A stretch of DNA of 63,909 nucleotides, filler included, from Hausera hauseri (taxonomy: Eukaryota): assembly GCA_046269625.1 (NCBI GenBank). It is 13 parts of 13 records of this genome, joined end to end, with 100 filler letters (N's around TTAATTAATTAA, not from the genome) between each part and the next. Parts side by side here need not be neighbours in the genome. Positions count along the whole stretch, not along the records: positions 5,046 to 9,500 come from JBJURY010572783.1; positions 9,601 to 14,723 come from JBJURY010328604.1; 11 more parts are not named here. One strand, given 5' to 3'. Under the pieces are notes generated by a model. That model searched no databases and was not told the DNA's origin. It worked only from the letters and a program-made list of their open reading frames with translations. A program made the position numbers and the translations under genes. Below are positions 1-45,842 of this stretch, piece by piece. Position 1 is the stretch's first letter; every line of letters begins with the position of its first letter.

Positions 1-246
1 TTATGTGTCTGGTAAGAATTCGTGTAGAGTTTTTTTCAGACACCCTACCCATGTTACATACAGGCACTGGTCTTCATCATCCTTGACTACTACATATTCG
101 CACTTTGTTCTGCATAGCGGACGCGACATTTTATTGCTTAGCCATTTCTGCAGGCAGCCTATACAGAAAGTATCTGTATCTTATGGCGCCAATTTCATTG
201 TTTTATCCGACATCTGCTCCCAAAAAATCGTACAAGTCTTCAACAT
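1..246 (-). pseudogene. Decayed RING-finger (C3HC4-type) protein downstream of Polinton pPolB
   Basis: Manual translation MLKTCTIFWEQMSDKTMKLAP*DTDTFCIGCLQKWLSNKMSRPLCRTKC...; fits CxIC...FCxxCLxxW...CPLCR with several ligands mutated and one stop; absent from the ORF track. Confidence 0.7.
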
Positions 247-486
247 TTTGAAATAATGCAAGATTAATTCAAGTAAATGTCGCACTGTATTGATTATTCA
301 AATTTATTGATTTTATTGATCTGCGTTTTACCTGGTTTTATCATATGTAATAGTTACATAGTTTTGCTTTGCCTTATCCTATGTCCCACATTACTTGATC
401 AAAAACTCGCGTTAATTATTATAACAAACATATATTGGTATAAAAATGGAACATATGTCTAATAAGTACAACAACAATGTTCATAT

Positions 487-3336
487 TTACATTAGTGAGG
501 CATGTCCATAAGGCAATGTGCTGATTCCGTGTTCAAGAATGTACCTTTTATCATTGAACCAATCGAGGCTTTTGTTCCGCAAAGCAACCGTGACAATCTC
601 ATGTTTCCGGGACTGCATCCTCTTCTTCTCGTTGACTATGTGAGTTTGTTCCCGTAACACTCTCTCAAAATCTGCAAAGCTTATGTCTTTAGATAATGTG
701 GTCCTTTGAACTTCCTTGGCTCGCTTCTTTACCTGATCACTTACATCGATGGCGTACATTTTTGATCTCAACGCCACGAAACGGGTGATGATCTTACCAT
801 TCACCTCGTCTTTAAACTTTCCGAAGACCTTCTTGGCGGTTAAATAATTTGGATGATCCTTGGGATAGTCTGACGTATCCATATACTGTTCCAATTTTGG
901 AAACTTTTCAAAGACATCATCTGTGTGGATCTGGTACATAAAACTGTCCGTGTCAGTGCACATTAGCTGGTGCTCCTTGAATGTGAAAACCATGATGTTG
1001 TAATGAAAGTCATACATCACTGTCTTGGATAGATCCAATATGGACATGCCCACATATATAGGCTTGTTGAACTCAAATGATGTCTTGGGGATATGGATGC
1101 TCACCAGGTTCTCCGTGTAGATTATGCTGCTGTGGAAATTGGATTTAGCGATGAGTTTCTTTGCCCTCTTCCAGTAACATACCAGCTCGATGTTTAACCG
1201 GTTCCGGAATTTTTCCATAGTTTTGCCAAAGACCAAGTTGTTATACAGTTTGAATTGCTCCTTTTCAAACTCGTTCATGGCATTTGGCCCTCTACTAGGT
1301 ATTGAGGTCTATGTATGGATTCAGCCGTTTGTGCTGCCTGAACTGCAAGGCCCCATGAATGCAGATGACTTAGCGTCCATTTTTGATGTCCTATTGGACA
1401 TATATGTACTGGGCTACATACCTCTTCCTGTTTTCGAGGTGGCAGGGCAACTTATTATACTTGCAATTCGGCGGCCTCTTGCTCTACGGCAGAAAAGGCA
1501 GTTGTTCATGCCTTGTTTGCATGCTATGTGAGTATTCCACGTCCACATGCAGTATGTAGCAGGTATCTCCATTGGGATCCCTACCTTCAGTATTCAAGAC
1601 TTGCGGCTGCTCCACCCACTGAAAGTTATTATTGGGCAATGGATTGCTCATTGCCCATTCATACAGGTTGTTGGCATCTAGGTATGATATATATGAGGAT
1701 TCCTTGGATGGATCATAATCTGCCATGTATTTGTCGTTGGTCTCATTGTACTTGTGAATGACCTGGTAGATTCCGCCCCTGATGCCTCTTTCAACCATGA
1801 GGACCATATTGTAATTCTTCAAAATCTGGAGCCTTATGCCTGTATAGCGCGACGTCGCCGCCCAGCTCATTCCTGGAGCTATAAAGAAATGGGCTGAATC
1901 TAAATTGTGGCTCTTAAGGGTCACATCCCGGAAGCTTTCGAATACATCTGTAAGAAACAGCACATCTGTGAGGAGATAGATATCACTGTATTCCACTATT
2001 GTCCTGCACTGGAAGGTCTGCCATACTCTGAGCGTGCTCATAGTCAGCATTGCTAATATGACTGTATGACAACTGGCTACAGAAGTCTCCATTTGCCGGT
2101 AATGTTTCTTCATCCAGTGCTTTCCATGATGTTATATAGTCATAGGGAACACTCCTTTCCGCTTCACCAGGTCAAGTGTATCCGGGAAAAACTTCTTCGT
2201 CTCCTTGAGCTCATCAGCTGGGAGGTTCACCAGGACGCTGTGCAGCGACGAGCTAATGAAGCGGAAGCTATGGATGAAGCGAAGTCTAATGCGGCTCACA
2301 TGCTTCTTAAAGGTGATGTACTTTTCCTCACTATTTGGAATCACATCAATGTTCCCCTCAATATTACCCAGTTCTCGAACAATGAAGCGGGAGTAGTATC
2401 CACTAAGATTTTGGAATACCACGGGAACATATGTACATGTCTTGCAGCGTAAGTTGCAATTGTTGTACGCTTCAGCCCAGTATATGCCTGTAAAATGGCT
2501 GTGATCCCTGACTTTGTGATTGTCCCATTGCATAGGTAGCATGTTGCTGCTTTGCGCCATTCACATTTTTCTTTGCTGTGACATCACCATGTAGCCCTTA
2601 TGCTGCTGCAACATATCTTCAGGTTTGTGGACATACTGTTCCTGACGCTGCATAAAATGTGCTGCTGCATTTAGACCCCTGTATAAGTACAGTTCTTTGT
2701 CCAGTCCTTTGACATACATGCAGTATAATGATAAGTCATGGTATTGGTATGCAGTAGTACTGCTTTACTGCAGGTTGGGGCTGCAGCTGTGAATTGGGCT
2801 GAGGATTGCCTCAAAGTCACAAATTATGACAATCGGCACCTTCTGATCTTCACGAACTCCTTGTATTCTAGGTAATCCTCCTTGTGGAATTCTACTCGAA
2901 TGCAATAGTTTGTATTGCAGTAGGTCTTATACTGTCCCAGCTTTTCCCCGGCGGTGTCTCCATTAAAATGGGTAAAGCATCTTTTGAATATATCCAGCCT
3001 TAATTTATGCTTGGATATTTGGGATTCTTGGAAGCGCTCAAAATTCTTGATCGAGATGAAATGCCTCGTTTCTCCATCATCTAGCAGCAGCAGATCCATA
3101 TGATCCTCAAATTCTTCCTTACACACATGCAAAGGATAAAATTTTTCCTACTCCAATCCGAAGATGTTGATGGAGATGTTGTTCACGCTTTCAAATTTCG
3201 TGACTTCATCTTGGCTCGGTGGGAATGAATTACAGCTGAAGTCGTATGCGTGCTGCGCTTTGTCATACATGAAAACTTTGGAAGCAGCATGTTGATCCTG
3301 GACTAGTTTTGACAAAATAGAATACATGAAAGACAT
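487..3336 (-). pseudogene. polB: Protein-primed family B DNA polymerase (Polinton/Maverick, adintovirus-like), frameshifted
   Basis: YLDANNLYEWAM (motif A), KLYNNLVFGKTME (B), CTDTDSF (C), KRKGVFP, GIRGG, exonuclease-like FQNLSGYYSRF, endonuclease-VII-like KVRDHSHFTG...NNCNL; many stops and frameshifts. Confidence 0.93.
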
Positions 3337-3576
3337 TGAGGCATGCCTTTTTCATAACTATCCATTCAGGAAGCAGTATGCAGTAGTTGCCTCATTGCTG
3401 CTATGAAGTATCTCCGCACTTTGCTCTTCAGTGCAGCTACATCAGCTGGTCGCTGCCGTTGACTTTTTTCGATATATATCATTCACTGCCACTGCGCCTC
3501 ATTTACGCTGCTCTGAGGATCCATTGTGCTGCGCCGGGGATTCAGGGCGCTATGGTGAGGTTAATGCAGCATGCGC

Positions 3577-3694
3577 TGCAGATGTGAAAGGCATAACCGG
3601 AACAATGCCTTCCGATTGTGCAGATGAGGTTGGTTTAACTGAAATAATACCTCTCCTTTATGCAGGTGTTGAAGGCATAACGAGAACAATGCCT
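3577..3694. repeat. Three degenerate 42-bp tandem repeats in the pPolB N-terminal linker
   Basis: Minus-strand peptides GIVLVMPSTPA / GIISVKPTSSA / GIVPVMPFTSA at 14-codon spacing. Confidence 0.7.
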
Positions 3695-3699
3695 GTTTT

Positions 3700-4282
3700 A
3701 AATATGGCCTTTTTGGACTTAGCCGTGAAATCACCCAAGTAGGTTTTATAAAATTTATAAAACTTACAGTATTCACCTGTGCTGCCAGTTTCACATTCGG
3801 GACATATAAGGTATTCTTCACTGTTTCAGATCCGACCATAATATTTTCTCATATTTTCGTGACATTTCCGAACATCATGTGAACCATCTGATACACAATA
3901 TGTGTATATTTGACATTTTTCCATGTTCTGTTTTGGAGCATTTAATAAAGTTATCATCTGAATATATGATTAATTTAGTAAATGTGAATTAATAAAATCA
4001 CCATTTGTGGTAAAAATCTTTGTAATATTCCTTTCTTGGATGTTTTGAACATATCGATATGATGTCTATGACCATCATAGAAATCATAATAACTTCCTCT
4101 TCTCACCTCCTCACATGTTGGGCATATGTAGAATTGAAAGCCATTGAACGACCATTTGTAATAATTTTCCATGATACTGTGACATACCTAACCATCATGT
4201 ATGATGGACTGACAATTGGGATAAAATGTACAATTGTAAAAACAGTTAATATTAATAGCAATGAAGAACAAAAACTTACCAT
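3700..4282 (-). pseudogene. N-terminal exons of the pPolB gene carrying two Cys/His repeats; 44-nt intron at 3958-4001
   Basis: Repeats YPNCQSIIHDG*VCHSIMENYYK...CPTC...DFYDGH and YTYCVSDGSHDVRKCHENMRKYY...CPEC...KFY; GT...tactaa...CAG intron joins them in frame; downstream exon is in frame with ORF 3148-3336. Confidence 0.65.
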
Positions 4283-4945
4283 TTTTTGGGAATAATGTAG
4301 TTTATTTTTTTATTGATTATTCAAAATTCAAAATTTTATTTATAATTTTGATGCAGTAAAAGAAACTGACTTGGATACCTATTGTTTATATAAATTTAAA
4401 AGTAAACTCAATACTTTTTGTTTTAATATAATGAGAAGAACAGTATGACATTAAAAAATGATTGATTTTGTGTTGTCCAAATTGTTAGGGAAATCAAATT
4501 TGTAACATTTAACTGGCAGTCTTTTTTCCTCTGACTCCTTTAACCAAACGATTGCTTCTGACTCCACAACTCCCAGACTTGAGTATAGTCATTAGCCCAT
4601 GCTATTTGCTGCAGTAGTGACGCTTTGTAAATAAGGAATAATTGAATTATTGCTTCATACGATAATTTCTAAAAGCCGAATTAGATCTCTAAATGTACAC
4701 CATATGAAAGGGATCTGACTAAAGTAGTCGCTGTTGTATGCTTATATTCGAGAGACGCACACAGTAGCGTGTCTGTTACAGTGAGCCCTTCTCTGACAAA
4801 GTTGTTATTCTAGAGTGATGCTGGGACTGAGAGCGATAGCTGCTAGTATTTTCATGAAGAGGACATGCATTGTATACAGTTAAAGCATGAACGGTGTGCT
4901 TTCCTTTGTGGAGCGCCTGGACTTGCTAATAGGACGGTTTGCATA

Positions 4946-5045: not shown

Positions 5046-7014
5046 GGTATTATGGTTATTAAGATTTCCCATGAGCATCCTACCGCTGCATATATTCCAT
5101 ACGCCTTACCTAATGCCGTAAATACTGTTCTTATAGCACTAATGATAAAATATATAGCTAGTAAACCGGAAGCTGCTTGACCGAAATATAAAAACTTTCC
5201 CCACATCTTTTCGATAACGTTTCTTGTTACTTTCTTTAAATAATCTTTGCCCATTAGGCTTTCCCATTGTGGTGACCCTTCACCGTTCCACATTACTCTC
5301 CTAGTTAGTTCTGTTATTACTCTTTGCCTTTGTTGAGGAAACAGCAACATTCGACGGTAATTTTTTAAATTTTGTTGTGTGTAAATTCCTCCCTGTGATA
5401 TTCCTGTTAGCGGCTCAAATTTCTGATTCCGGTGTAAATTAATTAAACTTAATGTTTCCGGTTTGGACACTGGCTCTCTTTTTGGCATTCTTATCCATTT
5501 GTCATTATCGATCTTAAACATTGGCGACATATTGAAAGTGCAATTGAATAGTGGAGTAGGTTTCACATTGGTTTCCAATAATATTCTAGTTACTGGCATC
5601 CCGTATCTTGCTTCTGTATGATAAACTATGGGTAATTCCATGGTGCATTCCTCCGTTGGTCTGATTGATACTTTTATTTTCTTACATTCTACTGTTATCA
5701 GTACTTCGCCCATTATTCTTCATATTACTCCGTCGCCAAAGGGCATTACTGGCGCTACCATGTCTGGATTGGTTATTACCAATGCCATTTTATTACGCAC
5801 TATTTCGTAGTTCAATTTACATTCATTCATTATTGTTTCTCGATATAAACCTCTAATTTCCTTCCTTACATAGTTAATTAAAAAATCGATCTTATTATCA
5901 AAATACTGGGTTAATTTAATATCCTTCTTATCTATTTTAGTTTTCACTCCTGGTATTTCTTTCATCGATAAGAAAATACCTTTACAGTTGGTTCTCGATA
6001 TATCCTCGCTGCACTTATTTGCTACTCCTTTAATTTTAAATCTCATCATTTCTTCTGGGTTCTCCGAATATACAATTGTAGCCACTTCTGGCATCTTGAC
6101 TTCCTTCGTTCCTTCTTTGTATGTTGTTGCCTCTTTCTCCGCCATTTTTCCACTGTCTTCTTAAACTTTCCTTCCTTTAAGAAAGTCAATTGACATTTAC
6201 TGGCGGAGGTTTCCCATGTCATTTTTGATTCTCCAGTGTCACATTCACCATTATCATATTTACATTAACTCATGGTCGTCATTAGTTTTGTTTGTGAGTC
6301 AAATAGGCCTTCGTATTCTTTTAACTGAACCTGATAATCTTCTGTAGCTACCATTCCAGGTGCAATGGTGCCTCCAACATCATAATCTACTCCTTTACAA
6401 GTACTTTCCATCGTTTTATCTATTCTTCCTGCTCTGAAGAATCTGGTGTATTTGATTCTATTTCGAACTGCCGGTATATGTGCGTTCTGGATGGTTATTA
6501 TTCCTATCTTAAAAGCATCCTGACATTCTGCTCGTGATATTATTATCGGTTCGAACGGTGTTGTGGGTTCAATTATAGCCGTATTGCCCGAATAATAAGC
6601 ACAATTAAAAAGAAAAAATGATCTCTTTACATAACATTCTCTAATTTTAGCTTTTATAAATTCTAATTCTTGATATACCCAGTATGTGAGACCACTTGTT
6701 GTTGTTAATTGTTTTGGGTCGGCCTCTGGATATTTCTTAAAGTCATCTAGGGAATATTTTTGTCCTTCGCTAGGTTTAGAGTTATCATAAGCTACTATAC
6801 CCACGGCTTTTGGCATTAGTAGTGATGTTATTAGGAGGATTTGAAAAATTTCTGTTAGTGACATACTTGTCATACATGTTCTAGGGGTGGTCGGTTGTGT
6901 CGTGGTTGGCATCTCTACGAATCGTTCTCGTTCCCCTGACCTTACTATACTGGTCATTAGGCTGTACAACCAGCCTCCTCTACATTGGACCCAATTTCCT
7001 AAAGTATCTTTCAA
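5046..7014 (-). pseudogene. env: Chuvirus-like (class III/gB-type) envelope glycoprotein, frameshifted
   Basis: Signal-like IFQILLITSLLMPKAVG then IVAYD; Cys pattern; YFDNKIDFL...LY...NECKL; GEVLITVECKKIKVSIRPTEECTMELPI; GGIYT; TM region MWGKFLYFGQAASGLLAIYFII...YAAVGCSW, matching my recollection of chuvirus glycoprotein motifs. Confidence 0.85.
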
Positions 7015-7082
7015 AATCTTTGCAGCGGTCTTGATGTTTCGTTCAATTTCTTCTAAATTTTGAGTAGGATGATTAATTACTA

Positions 7083-8120
7083 TTATTTTATATAAAAGGT
7101 AGGATATGGCTGTTTAAGCCTTTTTTGCGCCATTCCAGTTGCGAACATCTTTGCTAAGATATCCAACTCGTGTAGTTCATTTATCCGTTCTTCGTCTAAA
7201 TTCTCATAGAATTGCCTTCTTATTCGTTGCATGTTATTATGTAATGTTGTGAATAATTCGTCTGGAATTATTACCTGCCTATCAAATAAGGCTAATGACG
7301 TACGTAGCTTCGCCAGGGGAGTTCTTAATAGTGGATCTATATCTACGGATTCGGGAGTACCATTTGCACATGCTAATAATAATGGTTTTACTATTTCTTC
7401 GTTTCTATCTTTTCTATTGCGAATGTCACTTATTTTTGATCCTTTCGGTCTGCCTCTTCTCTTGGCTTCGGTTTGTACTGTGACGTCTTGCGTATCACCT
7501 GCAGGGTTTTCTTCTACTCCCTGTGGTTCCATTTCTCTTAAGATATCTTCTACGGTTGCCTGTGCTTTCGCCTCTGGATGTATTTCGGTTATTATTATTG
7601 GATTATAATTCCCGCTGCTGCATCCAATTCTCAATAATTTATCGTAGCTATACAATGTCCTACATAATAAATTAGTCCATAGGGGCTCCCTTAATAAAAT
7701 GGTTCCAACTCCTCTATCTTCTCTCGTAACGCCTGCATGTCATCTGTTTCGTTCATCCTAATGACCCTCATATCTTGATTTCCTTCTCTTACTGTTATCC
7801 TGATAGCTTCATTTCTTCCTTTCTCGTCTTCAGCAGCTTTGGCTAATACTGTTTTTGCTATCTCTCTTACAGGACTATTGTCTTGGGCTAATAATAATAG
7901 TTGTGGTAGAATTTCGTCCATCCTTTCTGCTGTTACTTTATTAATTATTACCTTTACTATCGTGGTAGTTGCTTTATCTATATCAATTATGTTATTGGGG
8001 TCAATGGTAATTACTGCTTGTATAATATCATCTTCTTCGTCTAAATCTACATCTGGATTCTTTATTACTTGATCTAATATAGCTTCGTCAAAAATCGGTG
8101 TAACTTCGGTTTCGTCTGGA
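7083..8120 (-). pseudogene. Unknown acidic/helical coding region between gag and env, with an AT-hook-like KRRGRPKGS
   Basis: ORF pieces 7691-7921 and 7083-7655 linked by frameshifts; same A-rich codon usage as gag and env. Confidence 0.5.
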
Positions 8121-9378
8121 CTAAAGGAGGATGTACTGAGGTTACTCTTTTTTCTTTCTTATTTTCCTTTCCTGCCTCTTCCCTCTCTGTTGATGTTTCT
8201 ATTAATTTAACGTCTATGTCAATTATTTTACTATTACCTTTCTTTCTTCCTTTATGAGATACTTGTTTCTCCGGTTGGTCTTCTATCATAAAAATATTAT
8301 TTTCTTTTAATCTTTGCTGTTGTCTTCTATACTCTTTCAATTCTACTTCCAATTGTTTCTTCGTGCGTTGGGATAAGGTATCACTTATATAATTAACATT
8401 TTCTTTCCTTTTATTGTTTTTCTTTGTTTCCCTTTCGCTAACGCTATACTCCGTTTCGTATTCCTTATCGAATGAGTCATTTGACGTAGCAGATGTATAA
8501 TCTTTCTTCCGTTGTTTCTTATTATTATTTGATTTAGAGGAATCTCCTCTACGTGACCTACATGACTTAGCTATATGCCCATATTTAGTGCAATTAAAAC
8601 ATTTCAATCTTCCCTCGGAATCTATGTTAGGTAGTGCTCTTCCATCCTTTTTGGATTTCTTCTTATAGCTAGTCTTTTCTCCATCATTTCGTAAATTAAA
8701 TCTCACTTTCTTTTTTATATCTGATTCTGCTTCCGTGGCTGACGTTTGTGACGGACTTCTGCTTCTTTCATAACGTTGATACCTTTGAGCCCTATTATTC
8801 TTTTTTCTATCATAACCATTGTTATTACTTTTAGACTTGTTAAATCTATACAGTTCCGCATCTCGTTCGGCTTTTCATGCCTTTCGTATGGCTTCTTGAA
8901 ATGTAGGTGGGTCCGCTTAAATAATTATTGTCCTTAATCTTTCCTCTAATCCATATTGAAATTGAGCTAGGAGTGCGTTATTTCTTGTAGTAACGTCTGG
9001 ATATGTTCTCAATGCGAGTTTTTCCAATGCGCAAACAAAGTCCTGGATCGTTTCGTCTTTACGTTGCCTCCTTATAAATTCCTCGATTTTCCCCTTTCCA
9101 GAGGGATCTATCAAAAACTTTTGAGGCAATTTTTCTTTGATTCCTTTCCAGTCCTTCTTGTCTTCTTGGGGCATTTGGAAATAAATTATAAGAGCCGTTT
9201 CTTTTAAATGAAGGGGTAATCTTTCCATTCTTTGTTTATCGTCCCAGCCAAAACTTTTGGAATATACTTTATATTCCATCATAAAATCCTGTATATTTTT
9301 TTTGCCCGAGAACCGTTTCATCGGTAGGGTGAAATCAGCCTTCGACTGAATCACCTGCTCTACGTTATGATTTGCCAT
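8074..9378 (-). pseudogene. gag: Ty3/gypsy-type Gag (capsid plus CCHC nucleocapsid)
   Basis: RFSGKKNIQDFM...GWDDKQR...LPLHLKETA; QRKDETIQDF...QFQYGL...PPTFQEAIRKA; zinc knuckle CFNCTKYGHIAKSC; both ORF pieces share one frame with two internal stops. Confidence 0.88.
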
Positions 9379-9615
9379 GGGTTCGTCCTCACTTAAATTT
9401 ATTAAATACTCTAGTCCGAAAGGCTCGTCTTCTTCTGGTTGGTAAACTGTTCCTCTTCTTGTGGTAATGGTGATACTTTTTCAATCCAAAGGTCCTTAAA
9501 NNNNNNNNNNNNNNNNNNNNNNNNNNNNNNNNNNNNNNNNNNNNTTAATTAATTAANNNNNNNNNNNNNNNNNNNNNNNNNNNNNNNNNNNNNNNNNNNN
9601 GAAAATCTAATTACT

Positions 9616-9894
9616 GTGTTAAATCAAATGTATATTCACCGATTATATGATACAAATTATTTTAATACTGTTGAAAAGGTACGTGGTGAATTAAAGAACT
9701 TGAAAGGGAAAATAATGGACAAAGTACGAGACTGTCAGCTTATGTGTGTACTATGTAAACAAAGAAAAGTGGATACGGTATTCTTAATGTGCGGCCATCT
9801 TGTTGTTTGTCAAATGTGTTTCACCAAAGTAACAACCCAATGTCCAGAATGTAAATGTACTATAATGGAAATTGTACACATTCATTACGAATGA
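9616..9894 (+). CDS. IAP-type C3HC4 RING-finger protein (probably 5' truncated), convergent with pPolB
   Basis: CVLCKQRKVDTVFLMCGHLVVCQMCFTKVTTQCPEC at the C-terminus. Confidence 0.85.
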   Translation: MLNQMYIHRLYDTNYFNTVEKVRGELKNLKGKIMDKVRDCQLMCVLCKQRKVDTVFLMCGHLVVCQMCFTKVTTQCPECKCTIMEIVHIHYE

Positions 9895-10067
9895 CTTCTT
9901 CAATAACGGAACATGGGCTTCAGTGACATGGAGGTAATTTGTATCATTGTGATATGAGACAATACTCACAAAGTAAATATCTATTGTTTACAATGAAAAC
10001 AAACCGGTATGAACAAATTTGATATAAATAGAGATGCAATTTCAGTTCACGTTTGTTTTTTTAAACA

Positions 10068-10283
10068 ATGTCTTTGGTGGAAAACAGTTCAGCAGGTGGT
10101 GACAGTCTCTCAAAAAAGCCGCGGTACAGCGAATATTCGCTCAAAAATTCCCGGTTGTATAATGGATACGACTTACATTATCTGCGCAACGCTAATCAAT
10201 TGCCATTGACGGAAACGGTCAAAATCAAACCGGTGAAATATCGTCTATTGGTGAAAAAAAATATATATACATACATTAAATGA
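10068..10283 (+). CDS. Small hypothetical protein of the Polinton-like locus
   Basis: ATG-initiated 71-aa ORF followed by AATAAA; no recognisable domain. Confidence 0.3.
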   Translation: MSLVENSSAGGDSLSKKPRYSEYSLKNSRLYNGYDLHYLRNANQLPLTETVKIKPVKYRLLVKKNIYTYIK

Positions 10284-10436
10284 TAATAATAAAACAAAAG
10301 GCAAAGCAACGAACAATATACATTATTTACAAAACACAGATAACAATGAATTGTCATAGTAAATGGGTCACTTTGATCTGTCTGTATCATTAGCACCGAA
10401 TTCATGCGCGTGCGTGTGCGTGTTTTATTCCAAACT

Positions 10437-13400
10437 TCAATGCCCCTACGCCCAACTCTTATTCCGCCCCATTCACTTACGCTTATCATCAATGCATAGT
10501 AAAGCGACTTTTGCATTGGTCACCGTATACAACTGGTGATCAATTGATGGGATGATCGTTTGAGAAACAACGATCTTTGATTGTCCGTCTCCTTCATAGA
10601 TACGGCGATAATCACTGATTTATTTCCGTCTGGGCCAACTGAACTCCTTTAGCGCGCATTTCCGGTCCACCGTCAGTTAAAAGGCTATAACATTTTGGCC
10701 GTAGAAATACCCATTCCCGATACTGAACTCGACCTTCACTTTCATTCCTGAAGCAGCCGATTTTGTTTGTGATGGCGTTGCTGTACAATGGATGATACTG
10801 TGGGTAATTGGGCGTGTCCAGTAATCCGTCTGCCATCATTTGCCACAGTAGTTGTTTGCGATTGACGTTTTTCAGTTGAAGAAAAAACTATCTGTTTCAC
10901 CGGCAATTAAAATTGATCTCGCATCTGCCGCCGCCGCCAATCATTTGCCGGTAACGTTACAAATCGTGATACTGCAGCTCATATATCCGCAGCTTGCTCA
11001 GATATAACTTGGTCGGACCTGTACGACTTCTTCCCTGTTTAAAAGCACGGCAACCAATCCATCGACAATGTGCATTGATCGCCTGAACTGCGTCTTACTC
11101 GTGCAACTGCTCTTCGTTATTGCACAGGCGTACATTGAGCCGCTTTTTCAGATTATTTACTGTTTTTCCGTAGAGAATTTTTTTTCAGTTTGTAATAGTC
11201 ATTTTCACACTTCGTACAAGCCGCAGCGCGTTTTTCCGAATTCCGATTGATATACGGCTTGAATATCGGAGCCTATGCGAATCGGATTTGCGCGATGCAG
11301 CTGTGTGACGCGTACACACAACTGCATGTAAAATTGTAACAGACGCCAATGAACTGTAGTTTTGTTTCGGTTCATGCGTCATAAGCAGCTTCTTCACCTT
11401 CGAGCATGATGGACATCGACTGATTGTTGCTACCGGCAGTTTATCCAGAAAGTCATGCAGCTCATCTGGTACCACGAGATCGACTTCCATCAGGTATCCG
11501 ATTGAGCTGTTTTCTGTTGTGTCTGTTCTCGACATATTTTCCAGTATTGTATCCAGGTTCTGTTTGTCAACTATCCATTCGAATGAACCGTACGGCAAGG
11601 GTTGCGAAAGCGCCTAGCTGTACAGGTTATTAATGTCGATATACAACAGTGATGTTGTATCATCACTGGTTACGTGATGTTTGTTGACAAATGTCATGCC
11701 GCCACGAATTCTAACATCAAACATTCGGTACATTTTCGGGTCTTGCAACAGCTCGAAATCCCGATCCAGTGACATCAGAACTGATACCCAACTCTTTCCG
11801 GGTATTGAGGAAAAGTTGAGTGGCTCCAGCCTATCTTCTTCCAACGCTTTAGCTCGAAATGTCTGAAACAGATCGGCTGACAGGTACACATCTAATTTTA
11901 AATAGTGAAGCATGTATTCCAACAGGTTTCTGCAGCCGAGCTCGACTGTGCTTTGTGATATTCATCTTCTCTGATACCGGGCCATTGTGATGGTAATTCG
12001 TCTGTTATCTGGAGCCGCTCGTACGATATCAAAAAGTCATATTGGAATATGCCTTTGCTGCGCGCAATATGCACAGGGAATTGAGTCAATGTTAGCGGCA
12101 CATCTGGCAAGGCATTTACCAGCTTTGCCAATGATTCATTGAGAAATTGCAATGAATCAAGGTATCGTACCTCGAACCGGTTTATGCGAGCAGACAGTGA
12201 CAGGTATTTTTCCATCGTAGGTGGAATTACGGATAGTTCTCTGTGCGGAAATCCGTTTATTGCCCATTTCAAAATATGGCGACAATCATAACCCCTGAAG
12301 TTATGAAATACCTCCGGTAGGAATGGCCGCATACGACTTGCCAAATTGCATGAATTACATGCGGCTTCGAGATATCGACCGGTAAAATGATTATGATTCG
12401 GGACGAGCCGTTCGTGTGCATCAGACGGTAATATTTTGTGGCACAGGTAACATTCATCTGTGACTGCAAACGTCAGGCGTTCATTTTCAACTGTCCAGAT
12501 CAGAGGTTTGGTGCTATTATCGCAATACCACGGTGCGATTTCAGTTTCCACTATGGTTTGCAACTGCCGCAAGAAATCGCGTACACAATTCCATCCGTTG
12601 AAAACATAATATTGAGGTTGACCTGCAACTTTTATTGAGACAACCAACATACCGACGGCGATTGGAACATATTTTTAGTCATATATGTTGTGCCGTGGTA
12701 CGATAGCTTTGATATCGGCACATACTACATATGCCGGACTCTGTTTTTGACCAATCAGTGAACCTTAGTTCCTTTTTGACGGGCATGATATACATTGTGG
12801 TTCCTGACGAATTTTGTCTGCACAGAGTAACATGTTTCTCCCATGTTTTCTACTTGAATCCATGAAGACATACAGGACACCATTTACTCTGTATCTGTTT
12901 TTTGAAGAAGTGGTCATGTTCCATGTTCAGCAGTCTCTCCAGATTTGTCACTGCAACGTAATGATACTTTTCCTTTTGCTCCAATAGCAACAAATTTAAT
13001 GAGCGGCCATTTAGGTTTCGACTACGATAGATTATATCCACATGAGGATTTTTGTAAATTTCTTCATCCGCCGGTATTTCTATTATTATGTTGTACAGGA
13101 ACACATTGATTGCCAGTGTCGGATTACGCGGTTCAAATGCCGGAATGGATTTCAGTTTCATCGGCATTCAGCTTTCATCAAAGTCCAATTCAGAAAAATA
13201 CTGACGATATTGATTTGGACGATATGCACCATGTCTGGCCACTTTGCCATATTTCAATACCGCTAGAATACTGTAAAGAAAACAGTATTCATCGCCAGTA
13301 TTTTTTATATTCACTACCGCCAGAGCTGCAGGTGTCAGTATGAATTTATGTCACTAGACTTTGTTATTATAAAGCTGAGGGTAACAATTCGTATAATTCG

Positions 13401-14310
13401 CCATCCACTACCTTTTTCCTCGTAGTTGGCCATTTTCTCCTCGAGCTTTTCGCCTACATCGCCAATAAAATTTTCGGCGTATGGTACAGCTCGATGTGAC
13501 AGGTACCATTGTTTTCTGTCACATTGTACGTTTTCGAATTCTGCAAGTGCATAATATTGCACTTTGCAATAATGTTGGAATTTCTCCACTTCTGATTCCA
13601 ATCGGTTGCACACATTTTGCGGAACATGTCTCAATTGCGTTGTTGTTTTCGCCGACATGTTCACTTTGATATCCACGTACGATCTGTTCAGATCGTACTT
13701 GACTGTAATATTGGGAATATTGGCTTCCTGTGGCTCCTATTCTTGTTGTTGTTGTTGATGCTGTTCCTGTTGCTGCTATTGCTGCTGCTGCTCGGTTCTG
13801 ATTAAGTCGTCAAGACTTGTTCAGGACTGACGTTTCCTACTGGTTGTTGAAGGGCTGCCTCTGCTGCTTTTAGTTGAGTCCATAACTAGTTGTTTTTTTG
13901 GCCGCTGAAACGGGTTGAAACGGTTCTTGTGCAGATTATAAAATTGTTCATAGTTGATTTTAGCAACTATTGAACAACCGGGACATACAGGCCCGTTTAT
14001 TGTGCAGCTTTGTGGTGCCATAGTACGGCTCCATTGTACTATGACAGCCACTAACATTGTGCACTTTATTATTGCAGTAGTGTGGGTATGTGAATCAATG
14101 CTCAACCATCATCTTAGACCGAGTAAACGGTCCGAGAGATTGCTTGTGCATTTCATAAAAATCGGGGTACGGACAGTGGGTTGGAATGTTACACGTCGGA
14201 CAAAAATACGTGTCCTTTCCTCCTGCTTTGTAATAATTCGCCATCTGTTGATGACACTGATCCACCTCATGTATTCGAGAGACGCAGTACATGGGATATT
14301 GCAAACATTT
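10437..14310 (-). pseudogene. polB: Protein-primed PolB, second Polinton-like family, including N-terminal Cys/His repeats
   Basis: EKGSGWRI, HNHFTGRYLEAACNSCNL, FHNFRGYD, YLDSLQFL, IRGGMTF, LYIDINNLY, FLRPKCYS; poly-Gln linker near 13740-13790; many stops and frameshifts. Confidence 0.93.
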
Positions 14311-14483
14311 CTAAATGCAAAACAAATTAACATCTATTAAAATTATAAATAAAATTAATTAAAATACATACATTTGTAAAATTAAACATTAAACACAACC
14401 CCGATGGTCTGTGAAATTGTCTTACTCTGTAATAAACATTAGTTCCCCATACTACTACTACTAATAATAATAATAATGATGAA

Positions 14484-14723
14484 ATGGAACAGTACATTGA
14501 AAATGAAATTCAGAAATTGACCGATGACATAATGACGGGACATGTGTTTGATGTACAGTTTTTATGTGAACTCACAGAAACGAGAATAATGAGCAGGCGA
14601 GAATATATTGAATTAATAGTCAGATCTCTCTTCATAAAACGTATCGAGGATGAAATGAGACGAAAACGACAACAACAAAAATGGCGGATTAATTTCCTCA
14701 TTGCATTTGTATTTACTGCTTCG
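14484..14723 (+). CDS. Hypothetical protein divergent from pPolB, truncated at the spacer
   Basis: Open ATG frame; helical, basic, then hydrophobic segment. Confidence 0.35.
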
Positions 14724-15024
14724 NNNNNNNNNNNNNNNNNNNNNNNNNNNNNNNNNNNNNNNNNNNNTTAATTAATTAANNNNNNNNNNNNNNNNNNNNN
14801 NNNNNNNNNNNNNNNNNNNNNNNAAAAAGCACAAAATGCAATATTAGGTGCAAATTTTACACATAGAAGTACCATACTAACAACATCGTTTGCATATACC
14901 ATGCACAATTTAGACATAATGCACACAAATGTATCCCAGATTGCCCTTTTAATAGCAACATACAGCATTCAAGCTAAGGACATGCTAGTTTCAGTTCTAA
15001 CAGCCGTCGAGGTTCTCCTGTTTC

Positions 15025-15059
15025 AAAAAACTAACTCCGCCACCAGAGTTTACGGCGAG
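15025..15059 (+). promoter_or_regulatory. Putative -1 ribosomal frameshift signal between gag and pol
   Basis: A AAA AAC then gag TAA, followed by a CGCC/GGCG stem; pol is open in the -1 frame; equivalent site in the second copy. Confidence 0.7.
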
Positions 15060-18000
15060 AAATGGTAACGGCCATTCTTCGCATGTAAATAGCCGAAAAA
15101 TTTCTTTCGCGGTATTCACGTTGAGAGCTTCTACCATAACACTACCATTTCAATACATAAACTTTCTCATCGACACAGGTGAAACTATACCGCTATTACC
15201 GCTCACTTTTCCAGTTGAAAATGTACCATCTAAAACAAAATCCCTTTTTACAGCTTCTGGGCAGTCGTTACACGTTTACGGCACCTCTAGACTCTTTCAT
15301 TTTGTCAAACTTTACTTCAAAGTTTATTTGGACTTTTACCGTTGCAAATGTCCAGACAGTTCTTCTAAGGTCTGATTTTCTATCTCATTACAATCTTCTA
15401 GTGGACTTTAAACAACGTTGTTTAAAATATGGCCAAAAGAATCAAATTGACCAGACGAATGGCGTATCCGCTGTCGCGTAAATGAAGGTCACAAGTAAGC
15501 CCATATTAAAAAAATTTTCAAATAAACAGACCTTTTTAAATAATCACAACTTATTCCATAAAATTTTAAAATATGACATTTATACTGAATCGAATTTGGA
15601 TGTTGACAACTATGATTTTGTCGCCACCGTAAAAACACTTAATAAAATTACTGCCTCAAATACAATATTTAACACGACCATACTACATCAAATACCTCTC
15701 GATCTTAATCCACAAAGTGAGTCCCATATTTTACCTTTTAATGATAAAACTGTCTCGCCTTCAACCGATCTTTCACAATTACCTAAAAGTCTGCAACATT
15801 ACGTTAATACGCCATGTACTCGCGTAATTCAGAAAGATAGGTACTTTGTATCAGCAAACTGTACTTTCCATTACATCGTAACACAACACCAAAGACCTAT
15901 TAGCTAAAAGGTGCGTCCACCATTTCTGCGCCGAAGACAGGCCGTTGAAACTGAATTCCTAAATCTCGAACGCTCAGGCATAGTACGCCGATCAATGTAA
16001 CCATGGTCTTTGCCTTTACATGTTGTTCAAGAAAAGACGGATTGTTTTGGCCGTGCGATGACTATCGACAACTAAACTCTTTGACCATAATGGACGCGTA
16101 CCCCTTACCGTTGATAAAAGACATTACATAATCTCAACGGCACGACAATTTATTCTACTATTGATCTGACCAAGGCGTATCACCAAATCCCGGTGGCACC
16201 CTCGGATATCGAAAAAACCGCCGTTACTACACCCTTCGTCCTTTGTGAATATTAATATATGCCTTTTGGTCTAAGAAATGCAGCACAAACCTTCAAACGT
16301 CATATAGATGCAATACTTTCTTATCTTCCTTATGTTCATCCTTACATTGATGACATTTTAGTTGCTTCTTCATCCAGTAAACAGCATCAGAACATTTACG
16401 ATCCGTTTTCGCCGTTTACACCAACACAGTCTCCAGATAAACTTTAAAAATGTCATTTCTTTCAACGACGCATAAATTTCTTCGGACATGTTATCTCTTC
16501 TGATGGGCATTCTCCTCAACCTGACCGAGTCCAGGCCCTCAAAAACGTTCAATTACAGCGAACAACCACTGAAATGAGGAGTTTCCTCGGCACATTACAT
16601 TTTGTCCACAAGTATGTCCCATATTGCTCAGAGCTAACCGCTCCCTTTGCTCATCTAAGTGGCGGAAAGAAGCATCAGCCAATACAGTGGACGAGGAAAC
16701 TCCTAGATAAGTTTGATAAGTTAGGAGAAGGCCTAAAAACAGTCGAAATATTAGCATACCCTCAGCCAGACACTGAGATTATTCTTACTACAGACGCCTC
16801 TACCACTGCCGTAGGTGCTGTACTGCACCAGATTCATAAAAAAGGAAATCAACCACTGGAGTTCTTTTCACGCAAACTAACACCCCTTGAAACTTTCGAC
16901 CGAGAACTACTGGCAATATTTTTTTATTTAAAACACGTTTCGAATTTGCTAACTGCCCGCCGTTTTACTATACAAACCGATCATAAACCCCTCATAAATA
17001 TAATGGGGATGAAACAACCGTCTACTCAGCAAGAACGACAGATATCGTACTTGTCGATGTTTAATTTTGAAATTAAACATATTAATGTCGTTAACAACTT
17101 AGTATCGGATTTTCTGTCTAGGTCAGTTAGTTCAATTGCTATTAAACCCATTTTCATTAAAAACCAACTTCAGGACAACCAGCCACCTCAAAACATTCTT
17201 AAATCTTTTAAATTGTGGAACATCGTTGACGGTTTGGTTTTAGACACGTCCAAACCAGGATAGTCTAAAATAATCTTAGCACCTGCTTTGCAAAAAGAGG
17301 CTTTCAACAGTGTGCATTCTCTACACCATACGGGTGCTACAGCCACTTTTCGCTTACTTCACAGACAGGTAGTTTGGCCGCCAATGCGTTCCGATGTGCA
17401 AGCCTGGGTTAAGGAGTGCGTGGCTTGCCAGAAATTTAAAACCACCAAGCATTTGAAGCCACCACTATATAATGTCCCTTGCACATCACGTTTCGAGACT
17501 GTTCATATAGATCTGGTTGGCCCTCTCCCTCCAGACAATGGCCATCAATATATCTTGACCATGATGGACCGTTCCTCTAGATGGCCAGAAGCCGTCCCAT
17601 TGTGAAGCACAAACACTGATACGATAGCCGAAGTTTTCATCCGCACTTGAATCAGCAGTTTGGATATCCTAGATTTATCATTTCCGACCAAGGCCCCCAA
17701 TTCGAATGCAACCTGTCCAAATCACTCGTTAGCAGATTTGAAATCAGTAATATACACACTAGACCTTATCATTCCCAATCGAATGCCCTTATTGAGAAAT
17801 TCCACAAAACCCTGAAAACGTCGCTAAAAATTCATGCTTAATCCAACAGTAGTTGGACAGCTCTTCTTCCTTTGGTTCTGCTTGGCTGGCGGAACATTCC
17901 GTCCACTACCACAGGATGCTCACCTACCGAAGCCTTATTTGGGGCGCCTGTTCGTTCTTTGTTTGAACTAACCACTCTAGATAATACGCCTACAGAAGAA

Positions 18001-18776
18001 ACGATCAGAGCAGCACAGGACCATTTTGTCACAGTCAGTAAAGACTCGTTCTGTAGAATACTACACAACAATAAAATGTATTTACCCGACAATTTATATT
18101 CGGCAAAGTTTATTTGGCTACGGTATCAAACGCCTTGTGGTTTTCAACCGCAGTATCTAGGGCCCTATAAGCTAATTTAACTACATTCTCACAACGCTGT
18201 CAGTTTTAAAGACGGCAAGGAACTAGTAGTCCATATAAATAACGTAAAACCTGCCTATTTTGTAGATGACATATCTCCAACCGATACTTCGACATATTTC
18301 CTAACTCCTTCATTTACTTCTGTTTCTGCTGCTGCCTCTACTCCTACTCCATCTTTTTCTGTTCCCGCATCTATTCCACCTCCTATTCCTATCCCTATCC
18401 ATACTCTATTTTCTCCTCCAGCTCCTTCACATGTTACTACTTCGCCCTCCCACTTCCTATTTTTGGGAACTCCCTTAGATAATATCAATTATCCACCTTC
18501 AGTTACTTTTTTTCCCTCTTCTGTTTTACCCCTGCAGGACAATACACTCAGCGAGACACAAAGTTACATCGTTTCTCCCAAAGCATCTCAGCAAACAGAG
18601 GCAAAAGCAAAAACATATCGCAAAACTGTCACTTTCAGAAAGTACAGTAAGGAGAAAAACATCGAAGGTATACAAGGTCTGGTTCATGCTAAAACCGAAT
18701 AGGCAAATCACGCTGTTTACTTCGTGATTTTCGTTCTTTTCATACTTATCGTTTTCAACCCACCCACGGGAGATGA

Positions 18777-18947
18777 CGTGGTGCCTACTGCTCATTTTGC
18801 CCTTCGGTCTGTTTTGGCCGGACACGGCCGGATATGGTGGTTGCGTCTCTTTGGCGTCGTCTTGCCGGGACTTGCTTACGTCTCTTGGAGATTTTGTCTA
18901 CTGGCCATTTTTCACAAAACGCCGTCTCATTGTTGTATATGACAACA
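18777..18947 (+). repeat. 3' LTR (about 170 bp) after PPT GGGAGATGA
   Basis: Starts (C)GTGGTGCC (TGTGGTGCC in the related copy near 27500) and ends GACAACA. Confidence 0.65.
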
Positions 18948-19872
18948 TGATAAAATCACTTTCAGAAATTTATCAACGACTAAAGAATTGGATTTAAAAA
19001 AAAGAAAAAAATTTGATGATGATGTGACAAGAGAAAATATAATGAGAATTTATTGGCACCTATCAATCAACCAATACTTCAGCCTTCATCATACTATCAA
19101 CATATATCGCATTTTATTTAATAATTTCGTTTTCATGGAATGTTGCCGAAAATTTTGTGTCGGATGCTTATATTCTTCTTATTAGTTCCACATTTCGTTT
19201 GCTAGTTTTTTGGACAATCACCGGGGGTTTTGGAGCAATTTCTGAATTCTGCCGACTCAATATCGATGTTATTTTAATATGTGCACGTAGGAAGATTGGC
19301 AGAATTTCAAGTGAAAAATTTTAAAAAATTGATTGATTATCGTTGGTTAAACTCGTGTTGATTATACTAAAATATTTTACAATCGTTATGGCAAATGTTG
19401 AGTCAGAATTGTATGTATTTGGAATGGATAAATCCCCCTATGATTATGATCATCATGGTGTGCTACATATCGTTTTCGGGGGTCGATTGATGCACCCAAT
19501 ATTCACCGGTATAAATTCTATTCTAAATCATCTTAATTTTCGTCAGTGGCATCCTGTACAAGTATCCCAATATGACANNNNNNNNNNNNNNNNNNNNNNN
19601 NNNNNNNNNNNNNNNNNNNNNTTAATTAATTAANNNNNNNNNNNNNNNNNNNNNNNNNNNNNNNNNNNNNNNNNNNNAGAGACTATGAAAAATGAGTATG
19701 GCAACTTTCTAAAAGCACAGAATGTAGAAATATAACAATTGAAATTTAAAGTCCAGTAAAAGGGTTAAATAGCAGAAGAGATACATTTGAAAAGAGAATT
19801 CATGATCTAGAATACAGTTTTCAAGAAATTATACAGAAAATTCAATCGTTCCTTCAGGGTTGTAATCCTTAT

Positions 19873-28357: not shown

Positions 28358-28849
28358 GATTCCTCAAAATTTAATGTCAGAGTATGAAGGTTTACAAGTC
28401 AGTTTAGTTTAGTTTTGTCGAAGGGTCAATATCTTCGCACACAGATAGATAGCACACAGATAAATATCCAAAAGCGTTCCATTCTCCTCCATTCTGGAGG
28501 AACTCAGCTCAGTGCACTTCAGTTGCACCGGCGAGGACCCTGAAGGGTGGGAAAATGTTTTCTAGAACTTTTCCCGGACAGCGGCCATTAGGCCAGTTCG
28601 TTTTTGATTTCCAACTGCCAAAGGATTTTTAATTTGCACGACAATGTACACGGAGGTCCGATCTCACTACCCAGAGATCGGGGGAAGTTATTATTAGAAG
28701 GTCCAGGAGAAATAATCCCAAGTGTACCTNNNNNNNNNNNNNNNNNNNNNNNNNNNNNNNNNNNNNNNNNNNNTTAATTAATTAANNNNNNNNNNNNNNN
28801 NNNNNNNNNNNNNNNNNNNNNNNNNNNNNTTTTGATTACTACTACTATT

Positions 28850-29020
28850 ATGCATAAATCGCATTTTACATTTAGCTCCACTGAGCTCAGTTACTATGGA
28901 AAGCTGCTCTTGGGCGCGAAATTTCGTAGCGTGTTTCCACTGGACTCTGTGCCTCGTGAGTTACGACAAATTGGTGGCTTCATTGTCAATAAACACACTT
29001 TATCGCTGCCTGGCGAATAT
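28850..29020 (+). pseudogene. N-terminal fragment of an adenain-like (Polinton PRO) cysteine protease
   Basis: FRSVFPLDSVP...FIVNKHTLSLPGE matches FxGVFPxDxLP...IVNTxxxxxPGEHW and is cut at the catalytic His. Confidence 0.75.
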
Positions 29021-31920
29021 TTTGGCAGTAGAAATATCCATTCCCGATACTAAAGCCGACATGCACTTTCATCTTTGAAGCAGACGATTTTCTTTTTGAT
29101 GGCGTTGCTATACAATGAATGATTCTGTGAGCAATTGGATGTGTCCAGTAATTCGTGTGCCATAATTTTCCGCAATAGTTGTTTTTTTGACGTTTCCCGG
29201 TTCCAAGAAAAACAATCTGTGTCACAGAAAATTATATTGATTCTGCATCCGCCGCCGCCTCAAAACATTTTCCGGCGTAGTACGAAATTGCGATGGTGCA
29301 GTTCATACATCCGCAACTTGCTCAGATCCAACACAACTTGTGCTATTTAACTTCACCGGTCCAGTACGACTTCTTCCCTGTTTATAATCACAGCAACCAA
29401 TGCATCGGCAATGTGCATTGACCGCCTGAACTGCACCTTGCACGTGTACGTGACAAACCGCTTTTCGCTATTAAACATGCGTACACTGAGCCGCTTATTC
29501 ACATTCTCTACTGTTTTTCCGTAGAGAGAATTGCTTTTTAGTTTGTAGTACTCCTTTCCAAATTTCATACAAGCTACAACTTCTTTGTCCGAATTCCGAC
29601 TGATATACAGCTTAAATATCGGAGCTTGTGCGAATCGGATTGCTCGATGAAGCTATGTGACGAGTACACCCAACTGCATGTAAAATTGCAACAGACGCCA
29701 ATGAACTGTGTAGTTTTGTTTAGGTTCATGCGTCATAAACAGCTTCTTCACCTTCGAGCTTGGTGGACATTGGCTGATTGGTGCGACCCGCAGTTCATCC
29801 AGAAAGTCATGCAGCTCATTTGGTACCACGAGATCGACTTCCATCAGGTACCGGATTGAGCTATTTTCTGTTGTGTCTGCTCTCCGCAGATTTTTCAGTA
29901 TTGCGTCCAGGTCATGTTTGTCGACTATCCATTCGAATAAACCGTACGACAATGGTTGTGAAAGCGCCCAGCCGTACAGGTTAATAATGTCAATATACAA
30001 CAGTGATGTGGTATCATCACTGGTTAGGTGATGCTTGTTGACAAATGTCATACCGTCGCAAATACCAACATCAAACATTCTGTACATTTCTGGGTCTTGC
30101 AATAGCTCGATATCTCGATTCAGTGACATCAGAGTTGATGCCCAACTCATCCCGAGTATTGAGTTAAAGTTGATTGGCTCCAGTCTATTTCCTGCCAACG
30201 CTTTAGCTCGATATGTCTGAAACACATCGACTAACAGGTACACATCCGATTTCACATAGGGAAGCATGTATTCCAACAGGTTTCTGCAGCCAAACTCTGC
30301 TCAAAACGACTGTGCTTTGTAATATACTTCTTCTGTGATACCGGGCCATTGTAGAGGTAATTCGTCTGTCGTCTGGAGCCGCTCGTATTATATCACCAAG
30401 TCATACGCAAATATACCTTTGCTACAAGCAGTATGTACAGGGAATTGAGTCAATATTAGTGGCACATCTGGTAATGCGTTTACAACCTTTGCCAGAGATT
30501 CATTGAGAAATTGCAATGAATCAAAAACGTGTACCTGGAATCGGTTTATACGAGCAGGTATTTCTCCATCGTAGTCGGAATTATGAACAGTTCATAGCGC
30601 GAAAATCCGTTCATTGACAATTTCAAAATATTGTGACAATCATAACCCATGAAGTTATAAAATACCACCGCACACGCCTTGCCAAATTGCATGAATTGCA
30701 TGCTGCTCCCAAGTATTAACTGGTAAAATGAACGTGATCCGGTACGATCCGTTCCTGTGCATCAAATGGTAATATTTTGTGGCACAGGTAACATTCATCG
30801 GTGGCTGCAAGCATCAGAGGTTTATATTCGTCTATCCACATCAAGAGTTTATTGCTATTTCTACTGTACCAGGGTGCGACTTCATTTTCTACCATTGTTT
30901 CCAACTAATGCAGGAAATCACGGATACAGTTCCAGCCGTGGAAAACGTAATACTGCGGCTGACCATTGGCTTTTATTGGGACTACAGACATACTGACACT
31001 GATTAAAACGTGCTTTTGATCGTATACATTGTGCCGTTGTAGAACGGCTTTAATATCGGCATATATCACGTATGCCAGAATGTCTGATTTTGACCAATCA
31101 CTGAATCTCAGCTCCCTTTTGACTGACATGACGTACATTGTGATTCCCGAGGAATTTTGTCTGCATAGAGTCATATGTTTCTCCCACGTTGTTTCTAATC
31201 TGAATCCGTTCAGGCATACAAGACACCATTTACATCGTATACGCCTTTGATAAACTGGTCATGTACCATGTTCAACAGTCTGTCCAAATTTGTCACTGCA
31301 ACGTAATGGAATTTTTCCTTTTACTGTAACACCAACAACTTTATTTGGCGGCCATTTGGGTTCCGATTACAATAGATTATATTCACATGAGGATTTTTGT
31401 AATTTTCTTCATCCGCCTGTATTTCTATTATTGTGTTGTAGCGGAACATGTTGATTTCCGGTGTCGGATTACGCCGTTCAAATGTCGGAATAGATTTCAT
31501 TTTTATCGGCATCCAGCATCCATTGTAATTTAATTCGCAAAATTATTTCTGATAGTGTTTTGGACTATATGACTATGTCTGTCCACTTGGTCATATTTCA
31601 ATACCGCCAGAATAATGTAAAGAAAACAATATTCATCGTTAGTATTTTTTACATTCACTACCGCCAGACTGCTTCAGAGCTGCAGGTGTCGGTATGAATG
31701 ATCGTCCAGACATATATTATGTCACTCGATTTTGTTGTGATAAAGCCGAGGGTGACAATTCGTATAGTTCGCCATCCACTACCCTTTTCCGTGTAGTTTC
31801 CGATTTTCTCCTCGAGCTTTTCGCTTACGTCGGCAATAAAATCATTGGCATATGGTACAGCTCGATGTGACAGGTACCATTGTTTCCTGTCACCTTTAAC
31901 GTTTTCAAATTCTGCAAGAC
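29018..31920 (-). pseudogene. polB: Protein-primed PolB, third copy, close relative of 10437-13550, truncated at both ends
   Basis: Collinear nucleotide similarity to the second copy; KLKSNSLYGKTVEN, LYIDIINLYGWALS, EKGSGW. Confidence 0.93.
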
Positions 31921-44349: not shown

Positions 44350-45420
44350 AATGCCAAATTCTGCTGTCAATTTTTTACGACAAATTCAACGAATAAAAAC
44401 TAGNNNNNNNNNNNNNNNNNNNNNNNNNNNNNNNNNNNNNNNNNNNNTTAATTAATTAANNNNNNNNNNNNNNNNNNNNNNNNNNNNNNNNNNNNNNNNN
44501 NNNATGATGAAATGAGAATTGAAATTGTACACACAGTTAGACTAAACATGATTAAATTTTGTCTAATGTTGATAAAATTATATAAACAAATCAAATCAGT
44601 CAACGATTATTTAATGTTAATTTTCGTCTGCACAGTTAATTTTGGTCAGCACATTCGTGGTTGATACATTCGACAAAATGATCATCAATTAAATGTGTTA
44701 CATCTAACCAGATAACACGCAAATAAATATATTTTCGGAAGTTTGTAGTTTAAGTTAACGGGATTTGTATCTAAATTAAAAATTAATCTATATATTACTC
44801 ATCAAAATGGGTTATAACATTTACCCTGCGTTGACTAATTTTTGAATTGCACGTGATCATAAAATATATATGTAAATATCTTTGTTATTTTCATCAAAAG
44901 TGTATACACAGAGAAATACAAACATAACAAAACAGTCGAATAAGACGACTGGGGCACGCAGGAGAAAAATAAAAGCAATCATATGGATCATCGAATGTTT
45001 ATTGTTACACTATTATTGTTCCTCCGCTGATGCGTACGACTGCCCAGTTGATGATCAGGCCATTCTGATCTGCATCTTCAGCGCAATAGACATCTCGTCC
45101 GGGCTGGAAACGAGTGTCCATGGACGTCGCATTTCGAGGGCTAGGCTGCAGGAAATGAGTTGGTTTTCCGACGAGACTAGAGATTTGAAGAGGCGGTCTG
45201 TCGCGGCCATCAGTCTGACGAAGACGGTCATAAGCCCGGTCGATTTGAAAAGACGCCTATTCGAAAGGGCTTCTCTCTCGTGTATTCTTGTGTGAAGTTC
45301 GTGGGCCCTCGTTCCATCATGTTCATTCGTCAGTTTTCCCGTTTTTCTCTTGTTGGCCTGTCTACTTAGTGATTTTGTTGTTTCGCCTTCTGGCGTTCTC
45401 TCTTCAGTCTGTGGGATATC

Positions 45421-45585
45421 GGTCTTTCGATTTCCCTTAGCCTTATCTTTCGGTTCTTCCGTTTCGTTATTTCTGTTTTCGGCGTTCTCTTCTCTGTCAG
45501 TGGTGTTTCGATTTCCCTTATTATTATCTTCCTGTTCTTCGGTTTTATTCTTTAGATTTCGAACGTAGGCATTGATTTTTGTATT
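45421..45585. repeat. Two copies of an approximately 81-bp repeat in an unknown minus-strand coding segment
   Basis: TEEQEDNNKGNRNT and TEEPKDKAKGNRKT on the minus strand. Confidence 0.55.
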
Positions 45586-45842
45586 TTGAGGCGTTTTCGT
45601 TTTCTGTGGCGTCAGTATAGGAGTTTTTTGAATCTGGTTTAGTAAGTTTTTAAATTATTACTACTACGTTTTAATTGAATATACAAACAAAATAAAAACT
45701 GTAAAAAATTTTTATTTCTTGTATGATTTTTTGCGTTTCTGTGAATTCGCGAATTTATATTTTGTATAAAATTCACTGTTGGTGAATTTATGTTAAATGC
45801 AATGTTCGTGAATTTATTTGTAAAGCAGAGTTTTACAATATA

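Follow-up and report, generated by a model that had tools for sequence, protein, structure and literature searches.

The window analysed in this study is a 63,909-nucleotide stretch of Hausera hauseri DNA, in which artificial spacers join 13 contigs that are unrelated and measure 3.8-7.0 kb each. Positions 5046-9500 (no strand assigned) are one entire unplaced contig flanked by N44-TTAATTAATTAA-N44 spacers; since this interval is exactly one contig, the adjoining sequence in the window is not genomic flank of the element described here, which is cut at both ends. The contig carries, all on the minus strand, a gag gene, a long coding region without family assignment (region X) and an env gene. 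No LTR, direct repeat, primer site or 3' purine tract was seen in 5046-9500, and coding sequence runs to both ends.

The capsid part of gag is located at 8920-9480 on the minus strand, with the first in-frame ATG at 9378. It matched the Pfam family Retrotrans_gag at about 9216-8944 (E 7e-4, under the curated cut-off), and its frame then meets in-frame stops at 8919-8917 and 8877-8875. A single zinc knuckle of the CX2CX4HX4C type (nucleocapsid) was found by motif and profile at 8560-8601 on the same strand, the zf-CCHC match (E 6e-4) also being under the curated cut-off. Both the capsid and the knuckle had been named in an earlier note on this DNA, and both are present. Gag continues on the minus strand through a basic, low-complexity segment at 8160-8559, and the frame changes at a point within 8160-8075. 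As to a programmed frameshift from gag to X, inspection by eye showed no canonical slippery heptamer. Because the gag matches lie below the Pfam cut-offs and RT is absent from the contig, the gypsy label is a weak one.

Region X (6850-8159, minus strand) is coding, with frame changes near 7740-7690 and 7115-7085, and no pol remnant was found in it. From the knuckle to the hydrophobic stretch at 6849-6793 there are 1.71 kb, about 570 codons without family assignment. This part had been described before as a near-open stretch of about 1.7 kb, with which its 3 breaks agree, against 16.6 +/- 2.3 (lowest 9) in 500 shuffles. Along X the composition passes from basic to acidic and then to partly helical with an AT-hook-like motif, RRGRPK, at 7460-7443 (minus strand). 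Motifs of this kind occur in integrase tails. X is most simply a long Gag extension, and its make-up suggests that it may have a nucleic-acid binding or spacer role. With X as query the ESM Atlas gave no usable match, and the single-sequence fold of X reached a pLDDT of 40.8, too low for use in a fold search. Cer1 CERV was considered as a model for X and found no support in the accessible portion of PMC10309623.

The env gene (5060-6846, minus strand) encodes a Monjiviricetes/chuvirus-type class III (gB-like) glycoprotein, matching PF24664 over positions 5-588 of 653. At its start lies an internal hydrophobic stretch, signal-peptide-like or signal-anchor-like (6793-6849, minus strand, hydropathy 1.96), and near its C-terminus a transmembrane-like stretch (5111-5167, minus strand, hydropathy 1.91), so that a simple window hydropathy scan places the ectodomain between two peaks, 6849 and 5167. 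The signal peptide and glycoprotein previously proposed to follow X are thus recognizable, the PF24664 match starting at about 6846. The gene is interrupted by stops at 6267-6265 and 5722-5720 and by a frame change near 6165-6120, and PF24664 (Monjiviricetes_fusion) matched in three pieces (E 1e-12, 4e-10 and 8e-44) spanning model positions 5-195, 253-361 and 373-588; with the stops read as residue X, the match reached E 2e-58.

In the ESM Atlas, 26 of the 30 matches of the env tail were PF24664 clusters (best 0.95) and herpesvirus gB scored 0.90, with a recognition value below the tool's bar. Nematoda was the commonest phylum in two of the three best clusters, a weak indication with few members having a taxon, and Arthropoda was the commonest in the top cluster. 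The single-sequence model of the env tail, made to look for the five-domain gB fold and its cysteine-bridge type, had a pLDDT of 37.6 and gave no match in a fold search at E 0.001, the model quality being too low, and a PDB sequence search returned a single match at E 1.2. The class III assignment, on which the earlier reading had been allowed to fail, holds by profile, together with the PF24664 and gB matches of the Atlas.

The remaining contigs of the window contain mostly animal-type mobile elements, and no sibling of the gag-X-env element was found among them. Two broken gypsy pol copies (RT and RNase H) with long low-complexity tails are located at 14824-19577 and 39292-44403 on the plus strand. 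They showed no similarity to the gag-X-env element, and a comparison of the window's own gypsy pol pieces with it (72 queries, 13 targets) gave one match, at scaled E 0.26, so they are regarded as unrelated. An unbroken Helitron Rep-Pif1 frame of 1,258 codons fills most of its contig at 19750-23526 (plus strand), which suggests a young family. Decayed minus-strand pieces at 1-4945, 9601-14723 and 28830-33136 resemble, by eye, the protein-primed DNA polymerase B of Polinton/Maverick elements, and a RING finger (E 8e-9) was found at 9601-9891. Several nested, decayed DDE transposases were recognized by eye at 44504-51501 (minus strand), which we take to have a Tc1/mariner and Tc5/pogo look. The A-rich, much-broken coding run at 51602-55791 (plus strand) includes an RPAP1_C match at 54704-55090 (E 1.4e-14), while in the 9 scanned pieces no further family passed the cut-off. 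A mobile element may have captured a fragment of a host gene here. The contig at 60065-63909 is a degenerate TTCG/TTCT tetranucleotide array.

Reading frame and family in run X1

Read from 9480 as far as the contig runs, the least-break path contains at least 8 breaks (4 stops and 4 frame changes). The opposite strand needs 36, and 200 block shuffles needed 59.4 +/- 4.3 (lowest 48). Gag, X and env therefore lie on one strand in a near-open path, as had been said of this locus (no obvious non-coding gap), and the idea of a single Gag-X-Env polyprotein fits this path. Codon-position composition is alike, and A-rich, in all six segments. With its 8 breaks, the copy at 5046-9500 cannot make the protein.

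Run X1 is one public run carrying the stretch, possibly the source sample; the summed depth of its contigs is not a copy number. At 80% likeness, 14,710 X1 contigs were placed on the element and all 30 bins were covered, with a summed depth of 858-35,895; 32 contigs overran the element ends, and the env-end bin had a summed depth of 18,178. X1 contigs identical to the 5046-9500 copy had depths of 5.6 and 9.3. From this contrast in depth it is likely that the contig broke within a repeated segment, and the contrast points to a large family.

At 90% likeness, 2,067 X1 contigs were found along 6700-8700. They covered 30 of 30 bins, with depth falling to 58-200 in three of them; 153 were partly aligned and 2% continued unlike the element. 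The best-supported loose ends at this likeness came from at most 10 contigs and measured at most 21 letters, and among those listed none was dominant between gag and env; the tables give the best six each, with 1,344 (80%) and 118 (90%) further loose ends. Two top loose ends at 80% resemble, by eye, the element's own next bases, like a diverged subfamily. A 192-base X1 contig is identical to the window across 8069-8260, and no piece spanning the whole element was present among the pieces listed. Taken as observed, the adjacency of gag, X and env looks family-wide, a family trait and neither a private deletion nor a chimera. Among the best listed rows, difference sites fell at the third codon position in 7 of 40 cases (80% likeness), 15 of 40 (90%) and 21 of 74 when pooled; the low value of 7 of 40, from selected top rows, hints at best at third-position variation within the family.

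Position of pol and gene order

Protease, RT, RNase H and integrase families were found in none of the six frames of the contig, and neither D[ST]G nor YxDD motifs occur on its minus strand. The six-frame scan bears out the absence of these enzymes between gag and env reported in the earlier note, and the canonical GAG-POL-ENV arrangement, with pol between gag and env, is not that of this contig. The further step taken there, to a "Pol-less" element, does not follow. Four codons separate the end of the env match (residue 1480 of 1484) from the contig end, and the match reaches position 588 of 653 in the model, of which about 65 positions are lacking. Env stays open up to the final base, and neither a stop codon nor a 3' region or LTR comes after it. 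The break falls inside env, so from this contig one cannot tell whether pol comes next.

We consider it probable that the contig holds the 5' half of a truncated, decayed and repeated GAG-ENV-POL element, with pol likely just past the contig end. The earlier premise that env usually stands downstream of pol is too narrow, since gB-type GAG-ENV-POL gypsy elements are published (PMC13524379). In its accessible text, this study (Chary and Hayashi, eLife) covers 1,512 env-carrying Ty3/gypsy elements ("errantiviruses"), and those of Nematoda, Bryozoa and Platyhelminthes, 55 of the 1,512 rows, all have a gB-type env and the order GAG-ENV-POL; in arthropods the usual order is GAG-POL-ENV, and 114 gypsy elements with a chuvirus-like glycoprotein are given. 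According to the same study, the cysteine-bridge type of env follows the host phylum. The element shares with these HSV/gB-type GAG-ENV-POL elements, likened here by description, a gB/chuvirus-type env that comes directly after gag without an intervening pol, an ectodomain between two hydrophobic stretches, a compatible length and genomic repetition (up to 215 copies of theirs in a planarian); it differs in that pol and LTRs are not visible and in its decay, the published elements having been selected for intactness (PMC13524379, accessible text). In a minus-strand element of GAG-ENV-POL order, pol is expected past base 5046. We infer this downstream pol, as no relative was retrieved and pol itself was not seen.

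The length from the gag start to the expected env end is 4.5 kb here, and pol has a size of about 3.5 kb. For comparison, 45 of the 55 Nematoda/Bryozoa/Platyhelminthes rows in PMC13524379 were entered, 4 contig-clipped rows were dropped, and the 6 kb flank added by the methods of that study was subtracted from the span of each row; the 41 rows used had a median ORF span of 8.6 kb (range 6.6-12.0). The difference between 8.6 kb and 4.5 kb leaves about 4 kb, room for pol, which is a compatibility check only. Taking about 2 kb for env and about 3.5 kb for pol from 8.6 kb gives an expected gag side of about 3 kb; the gag side here measures 2.5 kb.

An intact element of this kind would make one long polyprotein, in which Gag-X would stay cytoplasmic, the internal signal would send the Env ectodomain into the ER lumen and the C-terminal membrane stretch would bring the chain back to the cytoplasm. 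Protease, RT, RNase H and integrase would then be made in the cytoplasm, with Pol cut out by the element's own protease. It would thus supply its own Pol and copy itself by ordinary LTR retrotransposition, while the proposed function of Env would be to fuse membranes, from cell to cell or on entry into the germ line.

Certain nematode endogenous retroviruses of non-canonical order reportedly have gag, env, pro and pol in a single continuous ORF, with which the near-open frame seen here would agree. These elements (Sacco et al. 2022, doi 10.1099/jgv.0.001739, as cited in the accessible text of PMC13524379) have ENV before POL, and would be alike in that an env captured from an RNA virus is placed before pol. 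The mosquito Anakin elements are of the BEL/Pao type and carry a chuvirus glycoprotein, 13 of 263 being complete and many defective (PMC7642597, accessible text). They are alike in having the same glycoprotein family within an LTR element and many defective copies, and differ in having BEL/Pao pol domains, whereas here Retrotrans_gag and one knuckle are found and env adjoins gag; no Pao-type family match occurred in the six frames of the contig, which does not group with Anakin. The arthropod GAG-POL-ENV gypsy elements of PMC13524379, as far as its accessible text goes, share a gypsy gag and gB-type env, and differ in having pol between the two. Gypsy fragments beside chuvirus-type glycoproteins, without clear capture, are described in the accessible part of PMC10084718, and the accessible portions of PMC12440569 and PMC10309623 hold nothing bearing on gene order. 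Protein searches with env tail and gag queries gave no relative, by a method that needs shared exact words and is weak, and locus scans of viral contigs and metagenomes gave no true relative of the element. A 28-residue match to gag in an IMG/VR contig (L001, 1-9537) that carries a phage portal gene was taken as chance.

Alternative explanations and meaning

A non-autonomous LTR-gag-X-env-LTR family, the founder of which lost or eroded its pol (X being the stump) and which was amplified with Pol in trans, is an unlikely alternative that would also explain why no pol lies between gag and env here, and apparently none in siblings. X, coding and without family assignment, includes with RRGRPK a motif of the integrase-tail kind; yet X holds no pol remnant, nothing positive shows a 3' end, env being cut by the contig, and in GAG-ENV-POL elements too a long gag side is expected (about 3 kb; it measures 2.5 kb in this contig). 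The published gene order accounts for the same anatomy (PMC13524379, accessible text), although the search in that study required POL and is therefore silent on Pol-less families. If the host is an arthropod, to which the top Atlas cluster might point and where GAG-ENV-POL would be unreported, the Pol-less alternative gains weight. Its fuller form, a high-copy invertebrate family that makes the Gag-X-Env polyprotein only, builds enveloped particles and takes Pol from a partner, with the genes split over two genomes, appears doubtful to us; a keyword search of the literature, a weak test, found no invertebrate Gag-X-Env-only family with borrowed Pol. Of the satellite or bipartite element suggested earlier, the part that stands is the absence of pol between gag and env, and the part that falls short is a positive 3' end, env being cut. 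That idea rests on the absence of pol, for which the contig end accounts more simply.

A canonical GAG-POL-ENV gypsy element with a pol deletion private to the 5046-9500 copy is very improbable. Such gB-type elements are common in arthropods (PMC13524379, accessible text), depth dips to 58-200 in 3 of 30 bins at 90% likeness, and the loose ends are known from the best six of each table, with 1,344 and 118 further; however, one junction should leave many long loose ends, while the best-supported ones listed are short (median 9-21 letters), only 2% of aligned contigs continue unlike, and depth exceeds 850 in every bin at 80% likeness. The private deletion is already largely refuted by these observations, and the single-copy loss of pol offered in the earlier note gives way before 2,067 contigs along 6700-8700 with no dominant loose end from gag to env among those listed. 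Among the loose ends listed, the X1 contigs at 90% likeness gave no sign of siblings with pol between gag and env. We give almost no credence to a chimeric contig, or to a gag fragment and a viral glycoprotein EVE that became neighbours by chance. In favour, the contig is unplaced, short and derived from a repeat, and no X1 piece listed spans the whole stretch; against, everything lies on one strand in one near-open frame, the A-rich codon composition is similar in all six segments, and family contigs cover the element continuously, including the identical 192-base piece over 8069-8260. The chimeric scaffold that might have undone the earlier reading thus finds no echo in X1.

If the reading as a GAG-ENV-POL element is true, a divergent, heavily amplified family is added to the env-before-pol retroelements, one for which the protein and contig searches gave no close relative and in which the 570 codons from nucleocapsid to envelope are unexplained. 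It also brings a caution, that in fragmented assemblies "gag-env without pol" can be a GAG-ENV-POL element of which the first half was assembled. Were the family truly Pol-less, it would offer a rare instance in which selection maintains particle and fusion genes in an element needing helper enzymes.
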